Of a stretch of DNA of 64,000 nucleotides, positions 48,561 to 49,757 are shown piece after piece. This DNA comes from Escherichia coli (GTDB taxonomy: Bacteria > Pseudomonadota > Gammaproteobacteria > Enterobacterales > Enterobacteriaceae), in the NCBI RefSeq assembly GCF_003334785.1, contig NZ_QOWV01000003.1; one strand, given 5' to 3'. A program made the position numbers and the translations under genes. The first letter of the stretch is position 1; each line of letters begins with the position of its first letter. The notes beneath the pieces were generated by a model, which ran no database searches, was not told the DNA's origin, and saw only the letters and a list, made by a program, of their open reading frames with translations.

Positions 48561-49757
48561 ATGGCTCAAGTTATTAATGAAATGGATGTTCCGTCCCATT
48601 CGTTTGTTTTTCATGGTACAGGTGAGAGATATTTTCTTATTTGTGTGGTGAATGTGTTGTTAACGATTATAACGCTAGGTATCTATTTACCATGGGCATT
48701 AATGAAATGTAAGCGTTATCTCTATGCTAATATGGAGGTTAACGGACAACGATTTTCTTATGGGATTACCGGTGGGAATGTTTTTGTTAGTTGTCTTGTT
48801 TTTGTTTTTTTCTATTTCGCAATCTTAATGACAGTGTCAGCAGATATGCCGCTTATTGGCTGTGTTTTGACTTTGTCACTGTTGGTTTTGCTTATATTTA
48901 TGGCAGCAAAAGGACTGCGTTATCAGGCCTTGATGACTAGTCTCAACGGCGTAAGATTTAGTTTTAATTGCTCTATGAAAGGGTTCTGGTGAGTAACCTT
49001 TTTCTTGCCGATTTTAATGGCCATTGGGATGGGGACTGTTTTCTTTATCTCGACAAAGATGCTACATGCCAATAGTTCAAGTAGTGTTATTATATCTGTG
49101 GTTCTGATGGCAATAGTTGGTATTGTTTCCATTGGTATTTTTAATGGTACTTTATATAGCCTGGTAATGAGTTTTCTCTGGAGCAATACCAGTTTCGGTA
49201 TACATCGTTTCAAGGTGAAATTAGATACTGCGTATTGTATAAAATATGCCATCCTCGCATTTTTAGCTTTATTACCTTTTCTCGCTGTTGCTGGTTATAT
49301 TATCTTCGATCAAATATTAAATGCGTATGATAGTTCTGTGTATGCAAATGATGATATTGAGAATTTACAGCAATTTATGGAAATGCAACGTAAAATGATA
49401 ATCGCGCAGTTAATCTATTATTTTGGGATTGCTGTTAGCACCAGTTATTTAACGGTGTCGTTGCGAAATCATTTTATGAGCAACCTGTCACTGAATGATG
49501 GGCGTATTCGTTTTCGCTCAACTTTAACTTACCACGGTATGCTTTATCGCATGTGTGCGTTGGTAGTGATATCCGGGATTACGGGCGGTCTGGCTTATCC
49601 ACTGCTGAAAATATGGATGATTGACTGGCAGGCAAAAAATACGTATTTGCTGGGCGATTTGGATGACCTTCCTTTAATCAATAAAGAAGAACAACCAGAT
49701 AAAGGCTTCTTAGCCAGTATTTCACGGGGAATTATGCCTTCTTTACCATTTCTGTAA
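48561..49757 (+). pseudogene. yjgN: DUF898 inner membrane protein gene interrupted by an in-frame TGA at 48990-48992
   Basis: two same-frame ORFs (48534-48992, 49005-49757) separated only by ..KGFW-TGA-VTFFLPILMA..; read through from the ATG at 48561 gives 398 aa. Confidence 0.6.

Follow-up and report, generated by a model that had tools for sequence, protein, structure and literature searches.

A TGG-to-TGA change at codon 144 of yjgN, shared by Escherichia coli strains on a near-identical haplotype

The yjgN gene of the window (the whole stretch of 64,000 nucleotides of Escherichia coli DNA analysed here, contig NZ_QOWV01000003.1) is interrupted by an in-frame TGA at codon 144, created from a TGG tryptophan codon by one G:C-to-A:T transition (W144*). 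We interpret it as a genuine nonsense allele, inherited both vertically and horizontally, at which termination by RF2 would leave a null or a strong hypomorph, and we give this reading a probability of about 0.86. In every carrier examined the TGA lies on the same, almost unchanged haplotype, which spans 20 kb or more, the stop lies within a single conserved membrane domain, and the surrounding sequence has no recoding signal.

The interrupted gene and its constraint

The gene, its two parts and the terminator that follows it were located as follows.

48561-49757, plus strand: pseudogene allele of yjgN (DUF898/YjgN family, inner-membrane protein) of full gene length, interrupted at codon 144 (translation, Pfam DUF898, yjgM-yjgN-valS synteny, PGAP label)
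48990-48992, plus strand: premature TGA stop (W144*), mutated base 48992, ancestral G (comparison with TGG alleles)
48561-48992, plus strand: N-terminal ORF encoding a 143-aa fragment (translation, hydropathy)
49005-49757, plus strand: C-terminal remnant ORF of 250 aa (from TTG 49005) or 246 aa (from ATG 49017) (ORF list)
49766-49791, no strand assigned: strong bidirectional intrinsic-terminator hairpin between yjgN and valS (terminator scan, with a stem of 10-11 bp on either strand)

The TGA is in frame with ATG 48561, in the context AAA GGG TTC TGG TGA GTA ACC TTT TTC TTG CCG. The interval 48561-49757 comprises 399 codons (143 sense codons, the TGA, 254 sense codons and a terminal TAA), with codon 144 as its sole internal stop, and reading through this stop yields a protein of 398 aa. 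The preliminary description had reported that the TGA splits yjgN into same-frame ORFs of 152 and 250 aa, and the sequence and the ORF list bear this out: the former (48534-48992) begins at an in-frame ATG upstream of 48561 and the latter runs in the identical frame from TTG 49005 to 49757. It had also equated the 398-aa read-through length with that of YjgN in K-12 and proposed that the K-12 codon is TGG, altered here by a single G-to-A change. Both proposals proved correct, the first by translation and by the K-12 annotation (1197 nt, 398 aa), the second by alignment with K-12 and other E. coli yjgN sequences. Codon 144 is TGG in K-12, in the O55:H7 gene (annotated as intact, 1197 nt, “YjgN family protein”) and in 11 further intact loci (EC0880B, N51, O103:H2 12009 and L014-L021). 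The altered base is nucleotide 432 of the coding sequence, at window position 48992, which is G in the relatives and A in the window; this is the sole difference over the entire gene between the window and the TGG allele of strain CX08. A Dcm hotspot was considered as the cause of the G-to-A change and rejected, the minus-strand context being ACCCACCAG and not CCWGG.

With W144 restored, residues 13-369 of YjgN match positions 2-315 of the 336 of Pfam DUF898 (PF05987; E = 4.5e-47). Because the restored protein matches the profile over this length, the lesion is a specific one anchored in homology and not a chance pattern of ORFs. The C-terminal ORF is a same-frame residue of the ancestral gene. 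The profile match across the protein, together with a position between yjgM and valS as in K-12 (checked in the ORFs of the window and in the annotated loci L001-L013), places the gene in the YjgN/DUF898 family. The stop sits well within the single DUF898 domain. On the basis of hydropathy, W144 is the first residue of a hydrophobic segment (141-167), and the 143-aa fragment retains about three of some eight hydrophobic segments and two of the four G-x-RF-x-F loop motifs. The K-12 gene (b4257) has the same yjgM-yjgN-valS locus and the same length of 1197 nt, with 97.6% nucleotide identity and nine amino-acid differences in addition to the stop; it encodes an intact 398-aa protein, whereas the window allele ends after residue 143. 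Since yjgM is divergent from yjgN, valS is convergent on it and the terminator lies at 49766-49791, yjgN is monocistronic, and the stop therefore has no downstream gene on which to exert a polar effect.

A YjgN-family gene is present at this locus in all 5426 complete E. coli genomes. The class found in the window was recovered by megablast with the gene in 4630 of them, and a second class, 395 aa in length with 42% protein identity and about 69% DNA identity to the first, is present in 796 (for example in strain ESM1.4, L005:2465-3652, corresponding to 48561-49757 of the window). The WW pair at residues 143-144 is kept in this 42%-identical class. Among ten distinct alleles the pN/pS ratio was 0.13, a value biased somewhat downwards because L014-L021 were picked by protein identity; estimates made by hand against the window, with the synonymous sites set at about 260 and the nonsynonymous ones at about 930, ranged from 0.12 to 0.17 for K-12, O55:H7, EC0880B and O103:H2. 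Five other intact alleles encode the window protein with W144 and differ from the window at three to five synonymous and no nonsynonymous positions; this protein (P0032) is present on 892 contigs. The low pN/pS and the purely synonymous differences among intact alleles show that yjgN is normally under purifying selection, and the lost codon is that of a conserved residue.

The genes flanking the two yjgN classes remain highly similar, and the allelic divergence between yjgM and valS is unusually deep for a chromosomal locus of unknown function.

Sequence searches with the restored YjgN against NCBIfam, PADLOC and the PDB gave no match, and hence no functional lead and no solved relative. The literature on yjgN was searched and contained nothing on its function or on the W144* allele; it mentions variable gene content in ST131. 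The gene is dispensable in the laboratory, since yjgN::tet serves merely as a neutral marker linked to lptFG (PMC9544173). Further natural disruptions of yjgN were found by megablast among the complete genomes, an IS1 insertion and a truncation among them.

Carriers and haplotype of the TGA allele

A 61-nt probe centred on the site matched exactly in 237 of the 5426 complete genomes (at that length an identity of at least 99% is an exact match, and at most 14 of the 237 are possibly partial matches); the other 4310 probe-matching genomes fell in the 95-99% band. In the search with the full gene, ranks 1 to about 180-230 were at 99.9-100% identity. The frequency of the allele is thus about 4-5% of complete E. 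coli genomes. The preliminary description had offered a strain-specific nonsense mutation as one reading; it is a nonsense mutation, but its presence in about 237 genomes of several serotypes and phylogroups shows that it is not specific to a strain. The carriers include O26:H11 strain 11368 and many other O26 strains, O103 RM8385, O157:H16 98-3133 and the laboratory strain ML35, as well as the porcine ETEC strains O139:H1, O141:H4 and UMNF18. The yjgN genes of E2865 and strain 12690 are 100% identical to that of the window, and O15_8X has the TGA and one additional substitution.

In every carrier with an annotation that was inspected, RefSeq/PGAP calls yjgN a pseudogene with an “internal stop”, as for O26:H11 11368 (ECO26_RS34420), which has the TGA in common with the window and some 236 other RefSeq complete genomes. 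An in-frame stop within a conserved domain, with orthologues that are intact at codon 144, is consistent with this label. Exact look-ups among about 15 billion proteins placed the 143-aa N-terminal product and the 246-aa C-terminal product (from ATG 49017) on at least 1000 contigs each, the 250-aa form starting at TTG on 28 contigs and the 152-aa form on 13. The 143-aa and 246-aa halves have been deposited under names such as “Inner membrane protein YjgN” and “hypothetical protein UMNF18_5287”. Databases thus list the polymorphism already: RefSeq treats the locus as a pseudogene, and many submitters annotate two separate genes there. The preliminary description had taken alleles of this kind, with TGA at the same codon and two annotated genes, as evidence that would refute its reading; they do exist, each half on the numbers of contigs just given, and the reading is not thereby wrong. 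As a catalogued, presumably loss-of-function polymorphism in a gene of unknown function, the allele is ordinary and matters little alone. The half-ORFs annotated on thousands of contigs should become one pseudogene.

In the region of about 20 kb that surrounds the site, the window is separated by only three to eight substitutions from each of five carriers, which differ in serotype, whereas the TGG strains EC0880B, N51 and O103:H2 12009 are about 2% divergent from it. Strain O157:H16 98-3133 is near-identical across the whole window (eight differences in 39 kb) and is therefore of the same lineage as the source of the window. O139:H1 has a mosaic pattern: two segments, at 0-7 kb and at 10-12 kb, diverge by 2-3%. 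In O26:H11 11368, which belongs to phylogroup B1, divergence is about 1.7% from 2 kb to about 35 kb, and near-identity begins at about 35.2 kb and continues to 59 kb or beyond, which defines the following feature.

35166-59022, no strand assigned: minimum haplotype block with the TGA in O26:H11 11368 (near-identity, against about 1.7% divergence to its left)

The left edge of the block common to the window lineage and O26:H11 lies at about 35100-35200, in the treB/treC region. As divergence falls there, near 35.1 kb, from about 1.7% to about zero, the TGA of O26:H11 sits on an imported segment 24 kb or more in length. The presence of one haplotype in the carriers and this recombination block in O26:H11 indicate a single origin of the allele followed by horizontal spread.

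The window gene with its G restored is 100% identical to that of five complete genomes (AH02, AH04, CT01, CX08 and CX12), which thus carry a sister allele differing from the window gene in the TGG only. Strain CX08 has the window haplotype over about 44-58 kb. We considered whether genomes of the CX08 type might be revertants and rejected this possibility: at no fewer than eight linked sites CX08 has the state of the outgroup EC0880B and all six carriers have another state, and CX08 therefore represents the lineage before the mutation. The carriers are 99.9-100% identical within the gene, with nothing to distinguish some of them from the window (E2865), and they have no secondary disabling mutations; with three to eight differences per 20 kb, the haplotype is so young that their lack is uninformative, since only 0-1 substitution per 1.2 kb would be expected anyway. 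The window strain differs from other carriers by a private SNP in valS (50290) and by the copy number of an octamer repeat at 46036-46093. The allele provides a clean single-origin marker for a haplotype block moved between phylogroups, O26:H11 EHEC included, and the natural, isogenic-like pairs formed by TGA carriers and CX08-type TGG strains could be used to seek a phenotype for YjgN/DUF898.

A second carrier-specific change was observed at 48525, in the leader or promoter region of yjgN, 36 nt upstream of its start, where the six TGA carriers have C and both CX08 and EC0880B have A.

Translation at codon 144

In the explanation that we prefer, one transition at 48992 turned the conserved Trp-144 codon TGG into TGA on one haplotype, and RF2 would end translation there, freeing a 143-aa fragment without most of the DUF898 membrane domain. 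Lacking so much of the domain, the product would make the allele null or strongly hypomorphic; the dispensability of yjgN in the laboratory would explain how it persisted, and the allele may then have hitch-hiked or drifted to its present frequency and crossed phylogroups through recombination of blocks no shorter than 24 kb. A small, sub-percent fraction of ribosomes would probably read the UGA by means of Trp-tRNA(Trp) and make the exact wild-type protein. A universal and constrained gene family nonetheless makes a freely tolerated null somewhat unexpected, which leaves room for residual function.

The alternative that the stop is functionally leaky, with Trp-tRNA(Trp) reading UGA-144 often enough, for example in the cold or under nutrient limitation, to make the allele a regulated hypomorph and not a dead gene, appears unlikely. 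In its favour, TGG-to-TGA is unique among nonsense changes in that natural read-through puts back the residue that was lost: the ancestral residue being Trp, any read-through product is exact wild-type YjgN. According to PMC11126739, no stop in E. coli is leakier than TGA, the residue inserted is mainly Trp, a G at position +4 reduces termination accuracy, as would apply to the TGA-G of the window, and read-through, averaged over 40 premature-TGA reporters, rose from 0.51% at 37°C to 7.2% at 18°C. A dual reporter in BW25113 gave about 2% at 37°C and 4% at 25°C (PMC10570021). The published cases resemble the window allele in having a premature TGA followed by G at which Trp is expected, but they are engineered reporters in K-12. 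The universality and constraint of the gene family, and a downstream frame that is wholly intact in all carriers seen, also fit a leaky stop. The youth of the allele, however, accounts for that intact frame, and restoration of Trp is a general trait of TGG-to-TGA changes and no sign of programming. [quoted passage not shown] The published rates come from K-12, the RF2 of which has reduced function (PMC5373646), and a wild strain should for this reason leak less.

Nor does the sequence around the stop contain a stimulatory structure or a conserved context. A SECIS-like fold was sought in 48984-49060 (77 nt), the minimum free energy of which was -17.1 kcal/mol (z = -0.79 against shuffled sequences); the lone stable hairpin begins about 32 nt after the stop and is found in TGG alleles too. 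A search of 48300-49900 against Rfam at a permissive E-value returned sub-threshold chance matches only, at the yjgN/valS terminator, with none near the stop. The TGA is restricted to one near-clonal haplotype, with TGG in all the others, and is thus without the independent conservation expected of programmed read-through.

A stronger form of the leaky-stop idea, which we regard as quite improbable, is that W144* is a conditionally expressed hypomorph (well below 1% at 37°C, several percent in the cold or in starvation) and that a lowered or conditional dose, or outright loss, was favoured strongly enough to spread the block (24 kb or more) among strains of phylogroups A and B1. If so, the spread of the selected block would have taken in the whole O26:H11 EHEC lineage. 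The peptide GFWWVTFFLPILMAIGMGTVFFISTK would serve as a mass-spectrometry marker of full-length YjgN and would reveal the residue inserted; the allele offers a natural test case for the wild-type yield obtained by Trp read-through of a premature UGA outside K-12.

The two halves might instead be made separately, the second by termination-reinitiation at TTG 49005 or ATG 49017, to give a working YjgN in two pieces. The element that could support such a split gene is the following.

48987-48991, plus strand: Shine-Dalgarno-like GGTGA overlapping the stop, of putative function (RNAduplex against the 3' end of 16S rRNA)

This GGUGA is the sole ribosome-binding-like element 5' of the candidate restart codons; it has a predicted pairing energy of -7.4 kcal/mol with the anti-Shine-Dalgarno sequence and lies 11-13 nt from the in-frame TTG, itself 12 nt past the stop. 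Gene callers also routinely output both halves. Against this, TTG is a weak start, the spacing is beyond the optimum, and ATG 49017 has essentially no Shine-Dalgarno sequence (-1.8 kcal/mol). Restart at TTG 49005, though possible, would be weak and is unsupported. The break falls within the one DUF898 domain, where a hydrophobic segment begins, and a product begun at 49005 or 49017 would have the helix at the break shortened by five to nine residues, with no competent start downstream. The arrangement is, moreover, confined to one young haplotype, and we consider a split gene very improbable.

A promoter-like match internal to the gene (49066-49093) was discarded: it lies downstream of every candidate restart codon, and three such matches were obtained against 5.2 in shuffled sequences.

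A sequencing or assembly error, raised in the preliminary description, has nothing to recommend it past the prior that single-base errors happen, and it is excluded for practical purposes by the identical base in about 237 independent complete genomes, from various laboratories, platforms and serotypes, in which that base is linked to one specific haplotype. E. coli possesses the selenocysteine machinery, and the UGA is in frame, but the programming of UGA-144 as selenocysteine is less credible still and is rejected, as there is no SECIS 3' of the UGA (no hairpin within SECIS distance and no RNA-family match), the homologues have Trp and not Cys or Sec, and the flanks are unchanged from the TGG ancestor.

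Other observations in the window

Several other features of the window vary among the strains compared. An octamer tandem repeat, ATATAT[G/A]A, occupies 46036-46093 at the 3' end of the ORF 44548-46059, a yjgL-like gene between tabA and argF. The tract measures 61, 69, 77, 85 or 93 nt among otherwise near-identical haplotypes, and these 8-nt steps shift the frame; it looks like a hypermutable simple-sequence repeat. PGAP annotates the yjgL-like gene as intact (503 aa) in O26:H11 and ML35 and as “frameshifted/internal stop” in E2865, O139:H1, UMNF18 and O157:H16. No other stretch of the region is as divergent among non-carriers as this gene, with its 60-150 differences per kb. At the private valS position, 50290, the window has T, against C in all ten of the other strains compared, whether or not they carry the TGA. 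The holC-pepA spacer (53162-53457) contains self-similar copies of about 100 nt, with 91-94% identity at an offset of about 98 nt, which probably form an array of REP/BIME-type repeats; in O103:H2 12009 this spacer is shorter by about 220 nt.

In O26:H11 11368, across window positions of about 28580-36400, ISEc22 interrupts cybC, treB has a frameshift and treR is truncated; the window has ORFs of the expected length at these positions (128 aa at 28580-28966, 473 aa at 33870-35291 and 315 aa at 35410-36357).

Finally, in the interval 57542-62474 the gene immediately after yjgR is ahr (59174-60235; NCBIfam AldhRedAhr, E = 1e-165), after which comes a tRNA-Leu(CAA) gene (60389-60473), taken from its position to be leuX, and then an ORF of 650 aa (60522-62474), the counterpart of which in ML35 is annotated as a site-specific integrase. 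The idnR gene, next to yjgR in other strains, is absent from that position in the window haplotype, and an island appears to have integrated at the tRNA-Leu gene.
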